A DNA stretch of 24,000 bases. Origin: Rathayibacter soli (GTDB taxonomy: Bacteria; Actinomycetota; Actinomycetes; Actinomycetales; Microbacteriaceae). The DNA lies in assembly GCF_030866825.1 (NCBI RefSeq), contig NZ_CP133020.1, positions 4,164,924 through 4,188,923 of the forward strand, in the 5' to 3' direction. The notes beneath the pieces are model-generated. The model did not search any database, had not been told where the DNA came from, and was given only the letters and a program-made list of their open reading frames with translations. The translations under genes and the position numbers were made by a program. Shown one piece after another: positions 1,034 through 11,377 of the stretch (positions are counted from its first letter, which is position 1; each line of letters starts with the position of its first letter).

Positions 1034-1618
1034 ATGCACAAGCTGAGCACCCGCCTGCTCTTGACGCTCGCCGCGATCGGCGTCGCGGGCGGCATCGTGT
1101 GCCTGCCGACAATCTACGCCGGCACCGCGCTACTCGCGGTCGCCCCTCCGCTGTATGGCCTGATCGTCGGGGCATACGTCTTTCCCGGCGTGATCGCTCA
1201 ATCATTGTTGCGGCGTGGCGGCGTTGCCTTCGCGACAGCGACGTTGGCCGGCCTCGTTGCTGCCCCGTTCTTTCCAGGCGGTGTCGCCTACATTCCGGCG
1301 TTTGCGCTCGTCGGAGCGTTGCAGGAGGTGCCGTTCGCGGTCAGCGCGTACCGGTACTGGCGTGGCTGGGTTTTCTACCTGACAGCGGTTGTCGTCGGGC
1401 TGAGTATCGCCGTCGCCGAGTTCATCGCCGTCGCCGGCGAACGTGCGCCGCTGTGGGTCCAGATCGTCAAGCCCGGTGTGTTCGTTGTCAGCCTGGTGGT
1501 CTTCACAGTGCTCGGCCGCGCCGTCGCGGCCGGGCTGAATCGGGCGGGCGTCGGCCGCGGCCTCGCGCTTCCCATTGATCGGCGCCGCGTCGCCCGGGTG
1601 CAGAATCCAGTTCCGTGA
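1034..1618 (+). CDS. ECF transporter S (substrate-capture) component, YkoE-like (COG4721 thiamine/HMP-precursor type)
   Basis: 194-aa all-hydrophobic protein. The pattern (..YGLIVGAYVFPGVIAQSLLRRGGVAF.., ..GALQEVPFAVSAYRYWRGW.., ..VLGRAVAAGLNRAGV..) parallels B. subtilis YkoE as I remember it. It sits directly upstream of a fused double ATPase and an EcfT gene, which is the ykoEDC order. The only in-frame start after the upstream stop at 971-973 is ATG 1034 (plus a CTG at 974). Confidence 0.75.
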   Translation: MHKLSTRLLLTLAAIGVAGGIVCLPTIYAGTALLAVAPPLYGLIVGAYVFPGVIAQSLLRRGGVAFATATLAGLVAAPFFPGGVAYIPAFALVGALQEVPFAVSAYRYWRGWVFYLTAVVVGLSIAVAEFIAVAGERAPLWVQIVKPGVFVVSLVVFTVLGRAVAAGLNRAGVGRGLALPIDRRRVARVQNPVP

Positions 1619-3444
1619 CTGCGGCGAGCAACACGACGAGCAACGCGGCGAGCAACACAAGACCCGACGCGACGCCCGCTGCCGCGCCTGACGCGCGGGT
1701 CGAAACGCCGCCGGTGCTCACAATCGACGGCGTGCGCATCCGCCACGCCGAACAGGATCGCTGCACTCCCGACAACATCACGTTCACGGTGCGCCCGGGC
1801 GAGGTCGTGCTCCTGCTCGGCCCGAGCGGCTGCGGCAAGTCCACTCTCACGCTGGCGATGAACGGGCTCATCCCGCACGCGATCGCCGCCACCCTCGACG
1901 GCACCGTCACCGTCGGCGGCGTGAGCACCGCCGACACCTCGCCCGCTCGGCTGAGCGAGAACGTCGCCATGGTCTTCCAAGATCCGGATGCCCAGATCGT
2001 CACCGGCAGCGTGCTCGACGAGGTTTGCTTCGGGCCGGAGAATCTGCGACTGCCGGTCGAGGTTGTGCGAGGGCGCGCCGAGACGGCCCTGCGCCAGGTG
2101 GGTTTGTGGGAGCGCCGCGCCGAGAGCCCAGACCGGCTCTCAGGCGGCGGCAGACAGCGACTTGCGATCGCCTGCGCGCTGGCACTGGATGCCCCCCTGC
2201 TGGTTCTCGACGAACCGACTGCGAACCTGGACCCCGCCGGAATCGATGAAGTGTATGCCGTGCTGCGCTCACTCGTCGAAGGCCCATCGAACCGTGCGAT
2301 CGTGCTGGTCGAGCACAACCTCGACGCCGCAATCGACCTGGTCGACAGAGTCGTCGTGCTCGACGCCGCGGGCCGGCTCGCCTTCGACGGACCGGTCGGT
2401 CCGACGCTGCGCAACAACGCGGATGCGCTCCTGCAGCTCGGCGTCTGGCTGCCCGTCGCGACTCTGGCCGCGCTTCGGCTGCGTGCCGCAGGCCTGCAGC
2501 TGGACCCGCTGCCGCTGACTCCCGCCGAGTTGCGCGCAGCCCTGGACTCAGTGCCCGCAGACGCGGTGCCCGCAGACGCGGTGCCCGCAGACGCGGTGCC
2601 CGAGCGCGGCCGAAGGCAGCTCCAGCAAGACCGCGAGGATGCCGCGCTCATCCAGGTGCGCGAACTCACGGTGCACACAGGGAAAGTGCCGGTTCTGCAC
2701 GAGGTGAGTCTGGACATCCACCGCGGTGATTTTCTCGCCGTGATCGGCATTAACGGCGCTGGCAAGACGACCCTGGTGCAGGCGATTGCCGGGGTCGTAC
2801 CGTCACCGCGCGCAGCAGTCCGGCTCGGGCAGCTCGACGTCGGCCGGGCCGGCGCGCGTGAGCGAGCGGCGCACGTGGGCTTCGTGTTCCAGAACCCGGA
2901 ACATCAGTTCCTGGCCTACACCGTGTTCGATGAGCTGGCGCACGGTTTGCGCATCCGCAAAGTCGCCGCCGCCGAGATCGACGCGCGGGTCAGCGCGATG
3001 CTGGAACGGTTCGGGCTCGCAGACGTGCGCGACCGGCATCCGTTCCTGCTGTCGGGCGGGCAGAAGCGACGCCTGTCTGTCGGGTCCGCACTCATTGACG
3101 GCGCGGACGTTCTGGTGCTGGATGAGCCGACGTTCGGGCAAGATCGCGCACGCGCAGGAGAGCTATTGGCAATTCTCGATGACCTGAACGCAGCCGGCAC
3201 CACGGTGATCATCGTCACGCACGATCTGCAGTTGGTCGCCGAGCATGCCAGCCATGTCGCGGTGCTGTCTGGCGGCCGGTTGTTGGCGCACGTACGAACC
3301 GAGGCGGCGTTCGCGGATGCCGCACTGATCGACCGCGCCGGGCTGCGGCTGCCACCGCTCGCGCAGGCGATGCGCGGGCTGCGCAAGCATCCGGAACTGC
3401 AGGGCGTCGTGCGGTTGAGCGACCTGCCCGGGCCGTCGCTATGA
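1615..3444 (+). CDS. ECF transporter fused double ATPase (EcfA-EcfA', YkoD-like ABC ATP-binding protein)
   Basis: Two complete ABC cassettes. Walker A: GPSGCGKST and GINGAGKTT. Signature: LSGGGRQRL and LSGGQKRRL. Walker B: LLVLDEPTANLD and VLVLDEPTFGQD. H-loops: VEHNL and VTHDL. GTG start at 1615 overlaps the upstream TGA (GTGA). Confidence 0.92.
   Translation: MTAASNTTSNAASNTRPDATPAAAPDARVETPPVLTIDGVRIRHAEQDRCTPDNITFTVRPGEVVLLLGPSGCGKSTLTLAMNGLIPHAIAATLDGTVTVGGVSTADTSPARLSENVAMVFQDPDAQIVTGSVLDEVCFGPENLRLPVEVVRGRAETALRQVGLWERRAESPDRLSGGGRQRLAIACALALDAPLLVLDEPTANLDPAGIDEVYAVLRSLVEGPSNRAIVLVEHNLDAAIDLVDRVVVLDAAGRLAFDGPVGPTLRNNADALLQLGVWLPVATLAALRLRAAGLQLDPLPLTPAELRAALDSVPADAVPADAVPADAVPERGRRQLQQDREDAALIQVRELTVHTGKVPVLHEVSLDIHRGDFLAVIGINGAGKTTLVQAIAGVVPSPRAAVRLGQLDVGRAGARERAAHVGFVFQNPEHQFLAYTVFDELAHGLRIRKVAAAEIDARVSAMLERFGLADVRDRHPFLLSGGQKRRLSVGSALIDGADVLVLDEPTFGQDRARAGELLAILDDLNAAGTTVIIVTHDLQLVAEHASHVAVLSGGRLLAHVRTEAAFADAALIDRAGLRLPPLAQAMRGLRKHPELQGVVRLSDLPGPSL
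2551..2602 (+). repeat. In-frame 15-nt tandem repeat (gtgcccgcagacgcg x3 plus a partial copy) encoding VPADA VPADA VPADA VPE in the inter-cassette linker
   Basis: Three identical copies at 2551-2565, 2566-2580 and 2581-2595, then gtgcccg at 2596-2602. Confidence 0.9.
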
Positions 3445-4343: not shown

Positions 4344-5186
4344 ATGACACTCGTGTCTTCCACAAATGGCGAGGCCCGAGCCGCCGAGTCTGGTGCGACA
4401 GGCTTCAAACTGGCTGTGCTCGCGGCGGACCGATCCCTCGGCATTGCGTGGGCAGATCCCGGCGCCTGGCGAGCGGATGCCCCAGCATTGGCTCTCTTGA
4501 GCCAGCGCGAGCGCACACGCTACGCCGCGTTCACTCGACCGGAAGCCGCACACAGCTTTGCGCTCGGCAGAGCACTCATCAGGGAACTCGTCGCCTATGT
4601 GTCGGCGGTGCCCGCCGACGCAGTGAGGGTCGACGCGATGTGCCCGACTTGCGGCGGGCCGCACGGGAAGCCGATCATCGCGGCTCCCATTGCTGCGCGC
4701 GGGCGCATCCACGTGAGCGTGTCACGATGCGTGGGCGTCGTCGTTGCCGCCGCGACCACGGCAGGGCCGATCGGGGTCGACGTCGAGCCTGCAGACACCG
4801 GCAAGGACCGCATTTCCGGCGTCCGGTCGATCGCACCCGCCCCGCCCGGCATCGACGCAGAATCCGCTGAGGCAACGCTGCGCCGGTGGACGGCGATCGA
4901 GGCCGTGCTGAAAGCCGACGGGCGCGGGCTGACACTCGATCCATCAAACGTCACCTTTTACCGCACGGCGAGCGCGGCTGACCCGGCAATCGCGGCTGAC
5001 GCGACCGGTGGTGCGGTAACGGCGCAGATCGGTGACGAGCGCGCTCGCTACGCGGTGACGCATCCGCAGATCGACTGGGCGTTCGTGGTTGGGATCGCCG
5101 TGGCTCAGCGCGGCGGCGGGAGCGCCGGAAGCGCGTGGTCGACCAGCCACCGGTCGAAGAAGTCGTCCAGTGGTGCGTCGGAGTAG
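4344..5186 (+). CDS. Sfp-type 4'-phosphopantetheinyl transferase
   Basis: Motifs GGPHGKPII, IGVDVEP and WTAIEAVLKADG (the W-x-x-K-E-A-x-x-K-like PPTase motif). The first ~20 codons have low GC3, so the true start may lie downstream of 4344. The stop at 5184-5186 is fixed. The C-terminal ~25 aa look like non-conserved read-through into the convergent gene. Confidence 0.75.
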   Translation: MTLVSSTNGEARAAESGATGFKLAVLAADRSLGIAWADPGAWRADAPALALLSQRERTRYAAFTRPEAAHSFALGRALIRELVAYVSAVPADAVRVDAMCPTCGGPHGKPIIAAPIAARGRIHVSVSRCVGVVVAAATTAGPIGVDVEPADTGKDRISGVRSIAPAPPGIDAESAEATLRRWTAIEAVLKADGRGLTLDPSNVTFYRTASAADPAIAADATGGAVTAQIGDERARYAVTHPQIDWAFVVGIAVAQRGGGSAGSAWSTSHRSKKSSSGASE

Positions 5187-6436
5187 CGGGACGCGAGCGC
5201 CCGAAAATCGGCGGTCGTGACGCATCCGTAGCGAAACGCATCCGTCCAGTCGTGCAGCAGCCGGAAGAACGCGTCGTCGCCGATTCGCAGCCGCAGCGCG
5301 TGCAGTGTCAAGGCGCCGCGTTTGTAGACGCGATCGTCGAACATGGCGCCGGGCCCCGGGTCGGCGATCGAGAGGTTCGCACGCAGTTCGGCGAGCTGCG
5401 CGTGGTGAAGACGGGCGCAGGCATCCGCACTGGACGAGCCGGAGCGCTCCGACCACAACCATTCCGCGTAGCAGGCGAATCCCTCGTTGAGCCAGATGTG
5501 CCGCCAGGCGGCGATGCCGACGCTGTTTCCGAACCACTGGTGAGCGAGTTCGTGCGCGATCAACCGGTCGGATCCGCCGTTACCGTCGGCGTGGTTCGCA
5601 CCGAAGACCGCCATGCCCTGTGCTTCCAGCGGGATCTCCAGGTCGTCGGCTGTCACGACCACGCCGTAGCCGTCGAACGGGTACGGACCGAACGATTCCT
5701 GGAACAGGGCCATCATGCGGTCGAGGTGTCTGAAGTCACGGTGCACCCGGTGCTCGATCGCCAGCGGGTACGCGAACAACCCGCGTACTCCGTTCAGGTC
5801 GGGGTGCGCCCGCTTGTATTGGCCGATCTGCACGGTCGCCAAATAGGTCGCAGTCGGCTGCGCCTGCTCGTACACCCAGACGCCCTTGCCGTGCGCGACC
5901 CGGTGGTCTCGGAGCCTGCCATTGCAGATCACCGTGTACTGCTGCTCCGTCGAAACGCGGATGCGGTAGGTCGCCTTCGACGCCGGGTGGTCGTTGCACG
6001 GGAACCAGGTGGACGCCCCGGACGGCTGGGCGGCGACGATCACGCCGTCTGTCAGTTCCTCCCAGCCGACGGCGCCCCACGGGCTGCGCCGGGGAGCGGG
6101 CGCCCCGCCGTAGCTGACGATGACGGTGAACACCGACCCCGCCGCGACAACCGACGCCGGCGTGACAACCAGCTTGTAGCCGGGATGCGAGATCTTGGCA
6201 GCGGGAACGCCGTTGACGCTCACCTTGACCGCTCGCAGCTTTGCCAAGTCGAAACTGAACCGATGCAACGGCTCGGTTGCGACCGCCTGAATCTTCGCCG
6301 TGGCATCCAGCCGGTTTCTGACCACGCGATAGTCGAGGTCGAGGTCGTACGACGCGACAATGTATCCGCCATTGCCGAGGCCGGGCAGGTAGGTATCCCC
6401 CGCACTGTTGGCACCCGCTTGGACCGTGCTCATCAC
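5105..6436 (-). CDS. M1-family zinc metallopeptidase (aminopeptidase N / LTA4H-like fold)
   Basis: HELAH (nt 5540-5554) followed 18 residues later by the Glu of WLNEGFACYAE, giving HEXXH-X18-E. The N-terminal beta-domain resembles M1 family members. Start is GTG 6436 or the adjacent in-frame ATG 6433. No Shine-Dalgarno; the start lies inside the 17-nt repeat array. Confidence 0.9.
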   Translation of the reverse strand: MMSTVQAGANSAGDTYLPGLGNGGYIVASYDLDLDYRVVRNRLDATAKIQAVATEPLHRFSFDLAKLRAVKVSVNGVPAAKISHPGYKLVVTPASVVAAGSVFTVIVSYGGAPAPRRSPWGAVGWEELTDGVIVAAQPSGASTWFPCNDHPASKATYRIRVSTEQQYTVICNGRLRDHRVAHGKGVWVYEQAQPTATYLATVQIGQYKRAHPDLNGVRGLFAYPLAIEHRVHRDFRHLDRMMALFQESFGPYPFDGYGVVVTADDLEIPLEAQGMAVFGANHADGNGGSDRLIAHELAHQWFGNSVGIAAWRHIWLNEGFACYAEWLWSERSGSSSADACARLHHAQLAELRANLSIADPGPGAMFDDRVYKRGALTLHALRLRIGDDAFFRLLHDWTDAFRYGCVTTADFRALASRYSDAPLDDFFDRWLVDHALPALPPPR

Positions 6437-6517
6437 TGGACCGTGCTCATCATTGGACTGTGCTCATCACTGGACCGTGCTCATCACTGGACCGTGCTCA
6501 TCGTTTGCTGCTCATCA
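6421..6517 (-). repeat. 17-nt tandem repeat array (unit ATGAGCACGGTCCAGTG on the minus strand) filling the whole Pls-like/peptidase intergenic space
   Basis: Plus-strand units ggaccgtgctcatcact at 6421-6437, 6438-6454 (1 mismatch), 6455-6471 (1 mismatch), 6472-6488 and 6489-6505 (diverged 3' end), then a degenerate copy up to 6517. Each unit duplicates the peptidase start region. Confidence 0.92.
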
Positions 6518-9500
6518 CTTGGTCGACGTGTGATAGTCGGCGGTCGTCACTTCACGCCACGGCCCGATGGGGTTGCCGCTCCAGCGACTGAACGCTGGCA
6601 CATATTCGCCGCGCAACACGAGCGACGCCGGCCCGACGCTCGCGTGGCTGCCGATCCGCGCAGCGGGCAGGATGACGCTGTGCGGGCCGATCGTCGACCC
6701 GGTATCGAAAGTGACTGTGTCGATGCTCATGATTCGATCATGGAACAGATGTGTCTGCACCACACAACCGCGATTCACGGTCGACGCGTCGCCGAGCCGC
6801 ACGAGGTCTGCTTCCGGCAGCCAATAGCTGTCGCACCAGACCCCACTCCCGATCGAGGCGCCGAGGCTGCGCAGCCACCAGACCAGCGCGGGAGTGCCAG
6901 CGGCCGCCTGCGCGAACCAGGGAGCCGCGACCATTTCGACGAACGTGTCTGCAACCTCACTGCGCCACACGAACGATGACCAGAGCGGATGCTCACCCGC
7001 CCGGATGCGCCCCACCAGCAGCCACTTCGCCACCGTCGAGAAGGCGGCGGCCACGGCTCCGGCCGCGAGCATGACGACGCCACTGAGCAGCACAGCCAGC
7101 CAGACATCGAACGCCGCTGTGATGGCGGCAAGCATGAGCAGCACCCCGAGCCCGACCGCGCAGGTCACAACAACGGGCACGAACCGGCACAGCTCCCACA
7201 GTGTACGGGCGATGCGCAACGAGGCGCGCGGGGCGAAAGTACGACTCTGATCCCCGACCGCCGCGGTTCTGCGCAGACGCACGGCCGGCGATCCGAGCCA
7301 CGACGAGCCGGCTTTCGACTTGCGCGGGGCGGAAGACAGCACAGCAACCAGCCCGTCGCGCGGCACCGTGTGCCCGGGCCCGGCCATCCCGGAGTTGCCG
7401 AGGAACGCTCGGGCGCCGATCTCGGCACGGGCGACCCGCAGCCGGCCACCGCCGAGCTCGTAGGAGGCAACCAGGGTGTCGTCGGCCAGGAACGCACCGT
7501 CTTTCACCGTCGTCATCACGGGCAGCAGCAGCACCGTCGACGCCTCGACGTCCCGCCCCACCTTCGCCCCGAGCATCCGCAACCAGACCGGCGTGGCCAG
7601 GCTCGAATAGATGGGGAAAAGCATGGTGCGCGCCAGATCAAGCAGTCTCTCACTCGCCCAGACCTGCCAGCCGATCCGAGAGCGCACCGGATACGTTCCC
7701 TCGCGGATGCCGATCCCCAGCACCCGCACGAACAACACAACGAGCAACGCCAGCACAATGCCAGCCACGATCGTCGCGGGCACCAGCATCGCGAACGCGC
7801 GCAGGGCGGCAACGCCGAGGCTCGGCGCGTCGCGCAGCACAGGCGCTGCCACGACAACCCCCGCCGCAAGCGCGATGAACGGCAGCAGTGAAACGATCAG
7901 CGAAGCCCCACCGAACGCAAAGACCCAACGCGTGGCCTGCCGCGGCCGCTCGGACGGCCACCACAGATCGGCCGAACCGACCCGAGCGGCCGGCGAACCG
8001 GCCCACCGCTGCCCGGCCGGCACACGGCCGAACACAGACGACCCCGGAGCAACCACCGCGTTCTTGCCGATCCGCGCACCGGGCAGCAGCGTGCTGCGGG
8101 CCCCGATCGAGGAGTTTCCGCCGATGCGGATCGCGCCGATGCGCAGCAGGTCACCGTCGATCCAGTAGCCGGAAAGGTCGACCTCCGGCTCGATCGAAGC
8201 CCCGGCGCCGATGCGCAGCATCCCCGTGACCGGCGGGATCGCGTGCAGGTCGACGTTGGGAGCTATGGTCGCGCCGAGCGCGCGCGCATAGTACGAAATC
8301 CATGGCGCTCCGGCGAGACTGACCGCACCGAGCTGATGCGCGATCTGCTCGGCCAGCCACAGCCGCAGATGTACGCCGCCGCCGCGCGGATAGTCGCCGG
8401 CGCGCACCCCGGCAAGCAGGGTGCGGGCGCACACGACGGAGATTGCCATCCGCCCGAACGGCGTCACGAAGATCAGCAGTGCGATCACGAGCCCCCACAC
8501 ATTGACGTGCGGCAGAAAGCCGAAGCCGCCGAAACCGGAAAGGATCTGGCTTGCCGTCAACAGATACAGCAGCCAGCGCACCCCGCTCAGAATGAACAGT
8601 GGGACGCCGAGAATCGTCTGCAGCCACTGCATCCGCCGCGGCGTCCGCGAAACGACGTGTTCGGATGTCCGCACCACCGGCCCATCGTCGGCCCGCGCTT
8701 TCAACTCGGTCGCCATCGCACCGAGCCTGGGGTGTGCGTAAATATCGGCAACCGTGAATTCCGGATCGTTCTCGCGGATGCGGGTGACCAGCTGAGCCGC
8801 AGCGAGGGAGCCGCCGCCGAGGTCGAAGAAGTTCGCGTCAGCATCCGTCACCGGAATTCCGAGCACGGAGCGCCACTGCTCGGCGAGCTGCCGCAGGCCC
8901 TCGTCCATGCTGTCGGATTCGGCGGGGTCCTGCAGCAACGGCCAGGGTAGCGCGTCGCGATCGACCTTGCCCGAGGTGCGCGTCGGCAGTTCATCCATCA
9001 CCGCGAGCAGCGGCACGATCGCCGCAGGGAGTTCCGCGCGTAGCCGGGTGAGGCTGGCCGCACGATCAAATGCGCCTGGGTCGGCGACCGACAGGTAACC
9101 GACGAGCACCTTGTTGCCCGCCTCGGTCGTTCGTACTGCGGCCGCGGCGGCCGTTACTCCCGGCAGCGCCTGCAGTGCCGCTTCGATTTCACCCAGCTCG
9201 ATGCGTCGTCCACCGACCTTGACCTGATCGTCTGCCCTGCCTTGAAAGATCAGCCCAGTGGGCTCAAAACGCACGAGGTCACCGCTGCGATAGGCGCGCG
9301 GCCAGCCGAGCGCGGCATCCGCAGCGTACTTCTCGGCATCCTTCACCGGGTCGAGGTACCGGGCCAGGCCGACACCGCCGATGACGAGCTCACCGACCTC
9401 GCCGTCTGCAACGGGTTGCCCGTTCGCGGCGAGAACTGCGAGATCCCAGCCGTCCAAGGGCAGGCCGATCGGCACGGGTTCGCCGGGATGCAGCAGCGCC

Positions 9501-10540
9501 GCGCACGCCACGACAGTCGCTTCGGTCGGTCCGTAGGTGTTCCACACCTCACGCCCCTCGACCGCCAGGCGATCCACCAGTTCGCGCGGGCACGCTTCGC
9601 CGCCGAAGATGAGCAGTCGAACGTTCTCAAGGGACTCAACCGGCCACAGCGCCGCGAGTGTCGGCACCGTCGAGACGATCGTTATGCCGTGCGTGGTCAA
9701 CCAAGGCCCCAGATCCGTTCCGCTGCGCACCAGCGAGCGCGGCGCGGGAACCAGGCAGGCGCCGTTGCGCCAGGCCAGCCACATCTCCTCGCAGGATGCG
9801 TCGAATGCTACGGACAGTCCGGCGAGCACCCGGTCGCCGGGCCCGATCTTCTCCCGTTGCACGAACAGTCGCGCTTCTGCATCGACGAATGCGGCGGCCG
9901 AACGGTGCGTCACGGCGACGCCCTTCGGAGTGCCCGTCGACCCCGAGGTGAAGATGATCCACGCGTCATGGTCAGGCGAGGGCGGCGTCACGATCACGTT
10001 CGCATGCGTGCTGGCGTGTGGCGGGGTGCCAGCAAAGAGCGAGCGGTCGCCAGGCGGATGGTCATGTCCCGCTACCGACCGGCCGGCCTCGCCGAACGGC
10101 TGGGTCCGCTCGCCTGCCGGCCTGGTTTCGTCGAGCGCAAGTCGCGATGACGGCTCGAAGACGCCGTTAGCTACGATCACTCCGCTCACCGTAGCCTCGC
10201 CGAAGACGAGTTCGGCGCGCTCGACGGGATCGTCGGCATCCACCGGAACATAGGCGGCGCCCGCCGCCAGAATCGCCAAGATCGCCACGTACAGTTCTCG
10301 TGAGCCGGACGGCATCCGCACGCCGACGCGATCACCGGGTTGCACGCCGGCCTCATGCAGCCGCGCGCTCACACGCACGACGCGCGCCATCAGTTCCCGA
10401 TAGCTCAGGGCGCCTGCGGCATCTTCGAGTGCCGATGCCTCAGGGAACCTCTGCGTCGTGTCTCGCAGAATGTCCAGCAGTGTTCGCTCCGGCGCGGCAA
10501 AGCTGCTGCGGAGCAGGGTTCCGGGCGGAGAGTCGTTCAC
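6515..10540 (-). CDS. Pls/PosA-family single-module membrane NRPS (epsilon-poly-L-lysine synthetase-like homopoly(amino acid) synthetase): A-T-2TM-C1-2TM-C2-2TM-C3
   Basis: GTG start at 10540 with GGGAG 7 nt upstream. Full set of adenylation cores (IIFTSGSTGTPKGV, FDAS, NTYGPTE, GELVIGGVGLARYL, YRSGDLV, GRADDQVKVGGRRIELGEIE, SGKVDRDAL). Carrier motif FFDLGGGSLAA. Then three hexapeptide-repeat soluble segments separated by three pairs of hydrophobic helices. No HHxxxDG condensation motif and no thioesterase domain. Confidence 0.9.
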   Translation of the reverse strand: MNDSPPGTLLRSSFAAPERTLLDILRDTTQRFPEASALEDAAGALSYRELMARVVRVSARLHEAGVQPGDRVGVRMPSGSRELYVAILAILAAGAAYVPVDADDPVERAELVFGEATVSGVIVANGVFEPSSRLALDETRPAGERTQPFGEAGRSVAGHDHPPGDRSLFAGTPPHASTHANVIVTPPSPDHDAWIIFTSGSTGTPKGVAVTHRSAAAFVDAEARLFVQREKIGPGDRVLAGLSVAFDASCEEMWLAWRNGACLVPAPRSLVRSGTDLGPWLTTHGITIVSTVPTLAALWPVESLENVRLLIFGGEACPRELVDRLAVEGREVWNTYGPTEATVVACAALLHPGEPVPIGLPLDGWDLAVLAANGQPVADGEVGELVIGGVGLARYLDPVKDAEKYAADAALGWPRAYRSGDLVRFEPTGLIFQGRADDQVKVGGRRIELGEIEAALQALPGVTAAAAAVRTTEAGNKVLVGYLSVADPGAFDRAASLTRLRAELPAAIVPLLAVMDELPTRTSGKVDRDALPWPLLQDPAESDSMDEGLRQLAEQWRSVLGIPVTDADANFFDLGGGSLAAAQLVTRIRENDPEFTVADIYAHPRLGAMATELKARADDGPVVRTSEHVVSRTPRRMQWLQTILGVPLFILSGVRWLLYLLTASQILSGFGGFGFLPHVNVWGLVIALLIFVTPFGRMAISVVCARTLLAGVRAGDYPRGGGVHLRLWLAEQIAHQLGAVSLAGAPWISYYARALGATIAPNVDLHAIPPVTGMLRIGAGASIEPEVDLSGYWIDGDLLRIGAIRIGGNSSIGARSTLLPGARIGKNAVVAPGSSVFGRVPAGQRWAGSPAARVGSADLWWPSERPRQATRWVFAFGGASLIVSLLPFIALAAGVVVAAPVLRDAPSLGVAALRAFAMLVPATIVAGIVLALLVVLFVRVLGIGIREGTYPVRSRIGWQVWASERLLDLARTMLFPIYSSLATPVWLRMLGAKVGRDVEASTVLLLPVMTTVKDGAFLADDTLVASYELGGGRLRVARAEIGARAFLGNSGMAGPGHTVPRDGLVAVLSSAPRKSKAGSSWLGSPAVRLRRTAAVGDQSRTFAPRASLRIARTLWELCRFVPVVVTCAVGLGVLLMLAAITAAFDVWLAVLLSGVVMLAAGAVAAAFSTVAKWLLVGRIRAGEHPLWSSFVWRSEVADTFVEMVAAPWFAQAAAGTPALVWWLRSLGASIGSGVWCDSYWLPEADLVRLGDASTVNRGCVVQTHLFHDRIMSIDTVTFDTGSTIGPHSVILPAARIGSHASVGPASLVLRGEYVPAFSRWSGNPIGPWREVTTADYHTSTK
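8807..8809 (-). other. Codon of predicted phosphopantetheine attachment serine (Ser578) of the Pls-like carrier domain
   Basis: The minus strand reads aac ttc ttc gac ctc ggc ggc ggc tcc ctc gct = NFFDLGGGSLA. The tcc codon is the reverse complement of gga at 8807-8809. Confidence 0.8.
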
Positions 10541-10623: not shown

Positions 10624-11190
10624 TCACGAGTTCTTCAGCAGCGCGATCAGGCCTGCCTTGTTCAGTCGCGAGTAGTTCTCCAGCCCTTTCGCGTGGGCTT
10701 GGCCGCGCAGCATCGCGACGGTGGAACGCTCCAACATCGTCAGTGGGGCGTGGGCAGGCGCCTCTGCCGGGGCTGCCGCCTCAGCAGGCGCTGGGATGCT
10801 CGGCGTTGCGGTGCCCGACGACACTGCGGGCTTGACCGGCGTGGCTTTCTCGGCAGACACGGCAGTCTTGGAAGACGCGGCCTTCTTGGCCGAAGCTGCC
10901 TTCTTGGCCGGAGCTGCCGACTTGGCCGCCTTGGCAGACTTCGCAGCGCTCGGCTTCTTCGCAGGCTCGCTCTTCTTCGACTTGGCCCCCTTCGAGGCCT
11001 TGTCGTTCTTGGCAGGCGCGGTCCCCTTGGCCCGTTTCAGCGACAGTTCCAGGTCCTTCGCCTTTGCCTTCGCTTTGGCGCGGGTTTTCTTCTCCAGCTT
11101 CTTCGCTCGGAGCAACGCTTCATCGACCGCATCCTTGGCGTCCGAGTATGCCTTCTTCGCGGCCTTTTCGAGCTTCTTCGCTTTCGGCAC
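10624..11190 (-). CDS. Lys/Ala-rich basic protein with C-terminal Rho_N (Rho termination factor N-terminal / SAP-like) domain
   Basis: AKKA/AKSA-rich, histone-H1-like low-complexity body. The C-terminal end LERSTVAMLRGQAHAKGLENYSRLNKAGLIALLKNS matches the Rho_N helix-hairpin pattern. High GC3 from the GTG at 11190 (VPKAKKLEKAAKK...), with GAAGGGGTGG upstream. The ORF-track TTG start at 11301 adds 37 codons of low GC3, so I prefer 11190. The start remains uncertain. Confidence 0.7.
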   Translation of the reverse strand: MPKAKKLEKAAKKAYSDAKDAVDEALLRAKKLEKKTRAKAKAKAKDLELSLKRAKGTAPAKNDKASKGAKSKKSEPAKKPSAAKSAKAAKSAAPAKKAASAKKAASSKTAVSAEKATPVKPAVSSGTATPSIPAPAEAAAPAEAPAHAPLTMLERSTVAMLRGQAHAKGLENYSRLNKAGLIALLKNS

Positions 11191-11377
11191 GTGCGGTACC
11201 ACCCCTTCACTGCGAACTACGTCGATTGTGGGCAATTCTCCCACTCTGTGGCCAAATCTTCGGCGCGCGCGCTCAAGCCCCAGCGAATGGCCCGGCAGCA
11301 ACTCACCACGCCCTCCCTCTTCACGGCGCCGAGTGCAAATCCGTCAAGTGCGCTTGTGGCCGGGCGTCGCGCGGCCC

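Follow-up and report, generated by a model that had tools for sequence, protein, structure and literature searches.

A 24,000-nt stretch of the Rathayibacter soli genome (contig NZ_CP133020.1, positions 4,164,924–4,188,923), referred to here as the window, carries on its minus strand a gene for a homopoly-amino-acid synthetase followed by a gene for an M1-family metallopeptidase. Between them lies a tandem array of 17-nt units, each of which is a five-codon open reading frame (ORF) with a stop codon overlapping the next start codon. Coordinates are window positions.

The synthetase–peptidase junction

The two genes and the elements of the junction are as follows (all on the minus strand; an asterisk in a peptide marks the stop).

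6515..10540: synthetase gene (pls), single-module non-ribosomal peptide synthetase of the Pls/PosA family, homopoly-amino-acid synthetase, 1341 aa (TIGR02353, PF00501, PF00550)
6517–6515: synthetase stop TGA, reading ...ACC AAG TGA
6518–6516 and 6515–6513: start codons GTG and ATG, both overlapping this TGA
6515–6502: degenerate first unit ATGAGCAGCAAACG, 14 nt; mini-ORF 1, MSSKR*
6501–6485: unit 1, ATGAGCACGGTCCAGTG; MSTVQ*, ending in a GTGATGA junction
6484–6468: unit 2, ATGAGCACGGTCCAGTG; MSTVQ*, ending in a GTGATGA junction
6467–6451: unit 3, a variant with ACA and CAA, ATGAGCACAGTCCAATG; MSTVQ*, GTGATGA junction
6450–6434: unit 4, ATGAGCACGGTCCAGTG; MSTVQ*, ending in a GTGATGA junction
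From 6433: start of the peptidase gene, ATGAGCACGGTCCAAGCGGG..., its first 14 nt being the last, partial repeat copy
5105..6433: peptidase gene, PldII-like M1-family zinc metallopeptidase, 442 aa (PF17900, PF01433), with an in-frame GTG at 6436

The profile TIGR02353 covers residues 640–1325 of the synthetase (E = 6e-213, above the family cutoff), which also contains AMP-binding and PP-binding domains. In the peptidase, the HExxH motif and its downstream glutamate (H294, E295, H298 and E317) are invariant in 23 sequences, and 22 homologues align with its N-terminus, MSTVQAGANSAGD, residue for residue, which identifies ATG 6433 as the real start. The identities that an earlier note on this DNA had given to both genes from the letters alone are thus borne out. 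The NCBI annotation of R. soli holds an identical 442-aa peptidase and 1341-aa synthetase with the same start codons, the synthetase being identical to WP_308466219.1 of this species. Both protein records, WP_308466218.1 and WP_308466219.1, name Rathayibacter soli and Glaciibacter superstes, pointing either to a second deposited genome with identical proteins or to a relabelled organism. The gene order, Pls-family synthetase then M1-type peptidase, is that of the pls–pldII operon known from ε-poly-L-lysine producers (PMC8117764), and the R. soli pair has the features of this operon type: A and T domains, a Pls-type C-terminal region, and an M1 peptidase immediately downstream on the same strand.

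The 81 nt from the synthetase stop to ATG 6433 consist of the degenerate 14-nt unit and four 17-nt units; the earlier note had given this distance as 78 nt, which is right only if counted to the in-frame GTG at 6436. Tandem Repeats Finder (TRF) places the array at 6420–6502 with a period of 17, 4.9 copies, 93% matches and a score of 152, the top tandem repeat of the window. The unit ATGAGCACGGTCCAGTG, allowing up to three mismatches, has six matches in the window against 0.12 expected, and 0 of 100 shuffles reach six, putting the array far beyond chance. No further copy of the unit occurs in the 24-kb window apart from a chance three-mismatch match at another gene start. Each unit had been described as a copy of the first 17 nt of the peptidase gene, but only 14 nt are shared (15 nt in the variant unit). 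Common to the first unit (6502–6515, minus strand) and the 17-nt unit is only ATGAGCA, and a derivation of the former from the latter by loss of 3 nt was rejected, only three or four of the seven remaining positions matching.

Direct reading of the minus strand places ATGs at 6515, 6501, 6484, 6467, 6450 and 6433. When a terminating ribosome is followed by script from each stop to the closest overlapping start, the path runs through MSSKR* and four copies of MSTVQ* to the peptidase start; this series, together with the positions of the synthetase stop and the six ATGs, agrees with the original reading. The MSSKR* stop (TGA 6500–6498, minus strand) overlaps ATG 6501 as ATGA, and the later junctions have the form GTGATGA, which holds a pair of in-frame starts (GTG, ATG) and a pair of in-frame stops (TGA TGA), so that −4 and −1 overlaps are both available. 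All six junctions, from Pls to the first mini-ORF through to that between the fifth and the peptidase, are GTGA, ATGA or TGATG overlaps. Because the duplicated unit carries GTGATGA and has a length of 3n+2, each copy is a five-codon ORF with its UGA over the next AUG or GUG. As 17 = 3n+2, any three consecutive units also shut all three reading frames, which are indeed closed across the array. The synthetase and peptidase genes themselves are 81 nt apart, and are joined by overlaps of 1 or 4 nt only via the chain of mini-ORFs.

A second allele in a sister strain

The 90% identity cluster of the peptidase has one other member, a 443-aa protein from the Logan assembly of run SRR29826476, encoded on a 2052-bp contig (referred to here as L085) from an independent short-read assembly of a different sample. 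L085 and the window differ by about 3.3%, with 26 mismatches over 690 positions and 41 over 1362. From the end of the synthetase gene it reads ...ACCAAG TGA TGAGTAGCAACCG / ATGAGCACGGTCCAATG / GTGAGCACGGTCCAATG / ATGAACACAGTCCAAGCGGG, which TRF resolves as period 17 with 2.9 copies, versus 4.9 in the window. The sole indel in the 2052-bp alignment is 34 nt long, exactly two units, and lies inside the array, which is therefore a genuine repeat that varies in copy number. L085 also has the degenerate 14-nt first unit (668–681), here as ATGAGTAGCAACCG, encoding MSSNR* and differing from ATGAGCAGCAAACG at 2 of 14 positions, about the synonymous rate. Being common to both strains, this unit shows the array to be older than the strain split.

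The chain is intact in L085 as well, running MSSNR*, MSTVQW*, (M)STVQ* and then the peptidase, with an A-to-G change that both turns one ATG into GTG and shifts the stop of the same ORF to the second TGA. The earlier claims that the junction was amplified and that its copy number changes by whole units are thus upheld, since L085 has two units fewer and a regenerated chain. All L085 units end in CCAATG, like the variant unit of R. soli, and the derived CCAGTG is found in three R. soli units. The edge unit is the most diverged, and the unit variants behave as is usual for tandem arrays.

An assembly or sequencing artefact is very improbable. Assemblers can miscount tandem repeats, but here the independent assembly from a different sample has the same array in the same place with strain-specific substitutions, the whole array (83 bp) is below ordinary read length, and each unit adjacency of L085 is, judging from its sequence, spanned by one 31-mer with distinguishing bases.

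Only two alleles are known, with two and four 17-nt units (three and five mini-ORFs, counting the degenerate first). Exact scans of metagenome contigs for the unit–unit junction and for the 30-nt segment that follows the array gave no match, and an exact-sequence look-up of the R. soli peptidase has no contig on record. The 90% cluster of the synthetase has one member. With the peptidase's first 140 aa as query, the one match was a fragment of 57% identity, and the source protein itself was not recovered.

Ancestral junction and origin of the array

A scan of one genome per species yielded, among the matches listed, 80 loci with relatives of the peptidase, mostly at 41–59% identity and mostly not from the nearest Microbacteriaceae, whose loci were retrieved separately. 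In about 72 of the 80 listed actinobacterial loci, a Pls C-terminus (55–77% identical to that of the window) is encoded directly upstream on the same strand. In roughly half of the analysed loci, the Pls stop and the best-placed peptidase start share nucleotides: 4 nt at about 27 loci and 1 nt at about 6. Differing from these, and from R. soli, are the Streptomyces-type operons, where ordinary spacers of mostly 47–199 nt separate the two genes.

The closest relative outside the species, a Microbacteriaceae metagenome-assembled genome (MAG; L081, 70% identity), has the junction TAGTG, and Rathayibacter oskolensis (L082) has GTGA; in two further loci (L083 and L084), overlaps of 4 nt and 1 nt, respectively, are indicated by the gene calls alone. 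In all three (R. soli, the MAG and R. oskolensis), the synthetase extends for 13 residues beyond its conserved NPIGPW motif; in R. soli and R. oskolensis, 12 residues of the peptidase precede a conserved GD. The R. soli gene ends are therefore of ancestral length, and the 81–82 nt between them are an insertion. An ancestral direct stop/start overlap, as proposed in the earlier note, is supported by these comparisons across relatives. A 17-nt start-codon-bearing array occurs at none of the 80 listed junctions, several of which have other repeats.

The array would have been created by replication slippage or unequal exchange at this ancestral overlap, the duplicated unit comprising the GTGATGA junction signal and the first 14 nt of the peptidase gene. 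The sequence CCAAG occurs on the minus strand at the synthetase end (6522–6518) and at the peptidase 5′ end (6422–6418), exactly 100 nt apart, and this microhomology is present also in L085. The two copies, which without the 82-nt insertion would be 18 nt apart, are a plausible candidate for the slippage substrate. At the Pls stop lies a 10-nt string, GTGATGAGCA, that recurs unchanged at the inter-unit junctions. This origin would be compatible either with an 18-nt in-frame duplication and a later 1-nt loss or with a direct 17-nt event, neither of which accounts for the 14-nt first unit.

In 614 kb (the window and the fetched loci), TRF detects about 25 arrays whose period is not a multiple of 3 (copy number ≥ 2.5, score ≥ 50), most of which appear intergenic. 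Such arrays are ordinary in this DNA, and only the location of the R. soli array is unusual.

Other repeats lie near the same gene pair elsewhere. At an Amycolatopsis MAG locus (L048, 2919–3003), where the peptidase starts at a GTGA overlap with pls, an in-frame 9-nt repeat, GAACCCGGA, follows at once in 9.4 copies and extends the peptidase N-terminus by (NPE)n. In this case, too, a repeat has expanded at the pls–peptidase junction, and the coding sequence has absorbed it. In four Streptomyces, Kitasatospora and Streptacidiphilus loci (L043, L049, L050 and L055, around 2800–2950), the spacer consists of short C/G-rich tandem repeats of 5–18 nt without start codons. Strong tandem arrays with periods of 73, 41, 31, 19 and 13 nt, none divisible by 3, are found in five unrelated actinobacterial loci (L063 4342–4546, L053 4284–4439, L080 4316–4418, L026 3705–3762 and L031 4317–4349, respectively) at, or at most about 60 nt from, the end of the peptidase match; the unit in L053 includes an inverted repeat. 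The pls–peptidase junction seems prone to repeats across lineages.

Selection and robustness of the chain

Between R. soli and L085, the peptidase gene shows 26 synonymous and 12 non-synonymous differences (dN/dS 0.146, dS 0.083), and the 3′ end of pls has a dN/dS of 0.065. By these ratios, purifying selection has clearly continued to act on the peptidase after the array formed, and the gene behind the array is therefore not silenced by it.

In a simulation, 238 of the 243 possible single substitutions in the R. soli array (98%) leave the chain intact, and the persistence of the chain is therefore no evidence of selection; a conserved chain as a sign of function was ruled out on account of this built-in redundancy of the junctions. 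Gain or loss of a whole unit regenerates an identical junction, and neither natural allele disrupts the chain or the peptidase ORF. Repeat number shifts neither a reading frame nor a promoter spacing, the hallmarks of phase-variable on/off switching.

The pentapeptide itself, or its translation, is most unlikely to be functional, for example as a regulatory leader peptide or ribosome-arrest sensor. Both substitutions of the variant unit at 6467–6451 are synonymous for MSTVQ, a point in favour of such a role, but its CAA is found also in the peptidase gene and in every L085 unit and is probably ancestral rather than selected. L085 moreover has the variants MSTVQW* and MSSNR*, alternative-hairpin or terminator architecture is absent, and the peptide is simply the N-terminus of the peptidase. 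Selection on the pentapeptide was accordingly rejected, the synonymous pattern being better explained as the ancestral state.

Probable route from the synthetase to the peptidase

Duplex energies with the anti-Shine–Dalgarno (anti-SD) sequence upstream of the six array and peptidase ATGs range from −1.2 to −2.9 kcal/mol, versus a window background mean of −3.3 and a value of −6.3 at the synthetase start. By this measure none of the six has an SD, in line with what had been noted for every copy. No sigma-70-like promoter or intrinsic terminator was found in 5000–7200, no TANNNT hexamer occurs on the minus strand from 6620 to 6400, and the array matches no Rfam family. Of 200 shuffles, 199 are more structured than the array RNA (z = +2.5). 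The marks of leader-peptide or upstream-ORF attenuation (alternative hairpins, a terminator, a sequestered start) are missing from it. Three further candidates were rejected: an RNA element (no Rfam match, weak structure), an internal promoter or terminator (none found in 5000–7200, no TANNNT) and a DNA operator array (the unit, by inspection, is without dyad symmetry).

In reporter work, reinitiation is local, in that gaps of about 14 nt cost 40–80%, +38 nt almost abolishes it, and the last 15 nt of the upstream ORF suffice for coupling (PMC10666635). As it needs an overlap or a very short gap, a plain 81-nt spacer would uncouple the two genes. Of five Escherichia coli gene pairs, three lost 60–90% of reinitiation when the SD was removed, and a fourth lost all of it (PMC6728339). 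Since the array has no SD, promoter, terminator or RNA structure, serial termination–reinitiation is the most plausible route to the peptidase. In the mechanism we propose, pls and the peptidase gene are probably co-transcribed, and ribosomes leaving the synthetase would most likely reach the peptidase by successive local termination–reinitiation events. Each hop, lacking an SD, would probably lose ribosomes, giving less peptidase per synthetase translation than a direct overlap, and more units would probably mean lower peptidase output.

The peptidase might instead be initiated independently, either de novo on the unstructured, SD-less AUG at 6433 or on a transcript starting in or near the array, with the mini-ORFs as bystanders or decoys, which we regard as unlikely, though less so than any other alternative considered here. 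SD-less and leaderless starts are common in Actinobacteria, and Shell et al. in 2015 are said to have described such initiation there. The open starts of the weakly structured array RNA favour SD-independent initiation, purifying selection on the peptidase persists despite six hops, and bioBF, an overlapping gene pair of E. coli, initiates de novo without a strong SD (PMC6728339). Opposed to this are the lack of a sigma-70-like promoter and of a TANNNT −10 hexamer within 190 nt upstream, and the conservation of the overlap in relatives, which speaks for the importance of coupling at this site. Six AUGs of the same context would moreover cause de novo loading mostly to start five-codon ORFs, so that a relay would still be needed.

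A probable tolerated expansion at a coupled junction

The reading that we favour, with a probability of roughly 0.65, is that the array is a strain-variable 17-bp variable-number tandem repeat (VNTR) at a translationally coupled junction, a tolerated expansion that keeps coupling as a side effect and is not a dedicated regulator. The expansion itself is best read as near-neutral or mildly deleterious. The neutral duplication that the earlier note had offered as its alternative comes closest to this reading.

Several points weigh against it. After five or six serial SD-less reinitiations hardly any peptidase might be made, but its gene is clearly under purifying selection, a combination that fits efficient hops or a different initiation route; de novo initiation independent of an SD would be favoured, too, by the unusual lack of structure in the array RNA. 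Simple slippage of a 17-nt unit leaves the degenerate 14-nt first unit unexplained. With only two alleles known, neutrality is not separable from weak selection on copy number. Both co-transcription and reinitiation, finally, are what we infer from the sequence.

The earlier note had preferred a rheostat, in which repeat number sets the synthetase:peptidase ratio and slipped-strand events add or remove units. In its adaptive form, this setting would be selected, reversible and heritable, and would tune the amount of polymer-degrading enzyme made alongside the synthetase. Such a rheostat is not supported, and is improbable. Copy number differs by exactly two units in two close strains with the same junction regenerated, serial SD-less reinitiation should attenuate output multiplicatively, and the balance between synthetase and degrading enzyme plausibly matters for fitness. 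Yet the array is absent from every other Pls–peptidase locus examined, the integrity of the chain is explained by the redundancy of its junctions (98% of substitutions tolerated), and short non-3n tandem arrays are common in such DNA. With two alleles, a single length change over a dS of about 0.1 gives no sign of the hypermutability of a contingency locus.

Equally improbable is the array as a heritable and reversible graded attenuator, with each 17-nt unit cutting peptidase per synthetase translation by a fixed factor and copy number being selected. Were this so, strains with two and four units would differ in their ratio of synthetase to degrading enzyme, with effects on polymer length, accumulation or self-protection, and the array would be a repeat-number switch acting purely via serial termination–reinitiation, with no off state.

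Comparison with known systems

Mycobacterial interspersed repetitive units (MIRUs) insert at start codons and carry an internal ORF coupled at −4 to the gene, minimizing the effect of insertion, according to a 2025 review on translational coupling (PMC12548453, citing Supply et al. 1997). They provide a precedent for a relay of which the earlier note had known no described example: in both cases, tandem repeats of variable copy number lie between two genes of an operon, and each repeat holds a short ORF with a stop overlapping the next start, so that coupling is preserved and the insertion tolerated. The R. soli array matches MIRUs in its intergenic position within an operon, its overlapping internal ORFs and its strain-variable copy number. 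It differs in that MIRU units are 40–100 bp long, dispersed at many loci and thought to be mobile, whereas the R. soli unit is 17 bp long, is copied from the local junction and has no further copy within the 24-kb window; its ORFs are only five codons long, the minimum length shown to support coupling, and its host belongs to the Microbacteriaceae rather than to Mycobacterium. MIRU copy number is the basis of VNTR typing. Tandem MIRU units were reportedly first found, by Supply et al. in 1997, in the senX3–regX3 intergenic spacer.

Every junction of the array is a canonical −4 or −1 overlap, as in ordinary ATGA or TGATG coupling; R. soli, however, has six such junctions in series instead of one, no SD before any restart codon, and intervening ORFs without a plausible protein product. 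Haemophilus lic1 is a contingency locus in which tetranucleotide repeats within the reading frame, with alternative starts, give on, off or weak expression by frameshifting. Loci of this type likewise have slippage-prone repeats at the 5′ end of a gene and several potential starts, and their repeats alter translation heritably, but whole-unit changes in R. soli never alter the frame relationship, so that there is no off state. Bicistronic-design cassettes, named as a biotechnological use of coupling (PMC12548453), resemble the array in using a short throw-away ORF to bring the ribosome to an overlapping downstream start, but are synthetic, with one leader ORF that holds the SD of the second start, whereas the R. 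soli arrangement is natural, iterated and SD-less.

Implications

Serial hopping of ribosomes through minimal ORFs, and the loss at each hop, are debated, with 70S scanning set against a strictly local restart. The locus offers a natural test case for serial termination–reinitiation, with two alleles, canonical overlaps throughout, no SD, promoter signal or RNA structure to confound the outcome, and a downstream gene still under selection. It is chiefly valuable as a clean natural system in which to measure this process. A tandem duplication that includes an overlapping stop and start heals itself, which lets coupled junctions take up expansions by which the operon would otherwise be disrupted. 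The same logic has been put forward for MIRUs; here the repeat arose locally rather than from a dispersed element. For producers of poly-amino acids, the locus might serve as a natural knob on the balance between the synthetase and the degrading enzyme. The array is a genuine natural curiosity, and in all likelihood its expansion is tolerated and did not evolve as a regulator.

Neighbouring genes and repeats

The ORF immediately preceding pls (10624–11301, minus strand) encodes 225 aa with a high content of Lys, Ala and Ser (...AKKAASAKKAAS...), and has about 80 nt between its stop and the pls start. It consists partly of 18- and 9-nt tandem repeats (10759–11077) and looks histone-like or like a basic low-complexity protein.

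Convergent with the peptidase gene is an ORF of the 4′-phosphopantetheinyl transferase family (ACPS, E = 2e-6; 4344–5186, plus strand), the 3′ end of which overlaps that of the peptidase gene by 82 nt. It may encode the phosphopantetheinyl transferase that primes the T domain of Pls. A weak ACPS gene adjoins the peptidase gene also in the Diaminobutyricibacter-like locus L084.

Elsewhere in the window is a double ABC-ATPase gene (1615–3444) that contains, in frame, a perfect 15-nt tandem repeat, GTGCCCGCAGACGCG (2551–2602, plus strand; 3.5 copies, 100% match, score 104), which probably forms a VPADA-type repeated linker joining the two ATPase domains. The stop of this gene overlaps the start of a CbiQ-family permease gene as ATGA (3441–3444, plus strand), an ordinary coupling; the CbiQ-family gene is a three-mismatch match to the 17-nt repeat unit because it begins ATGAGCACGG.

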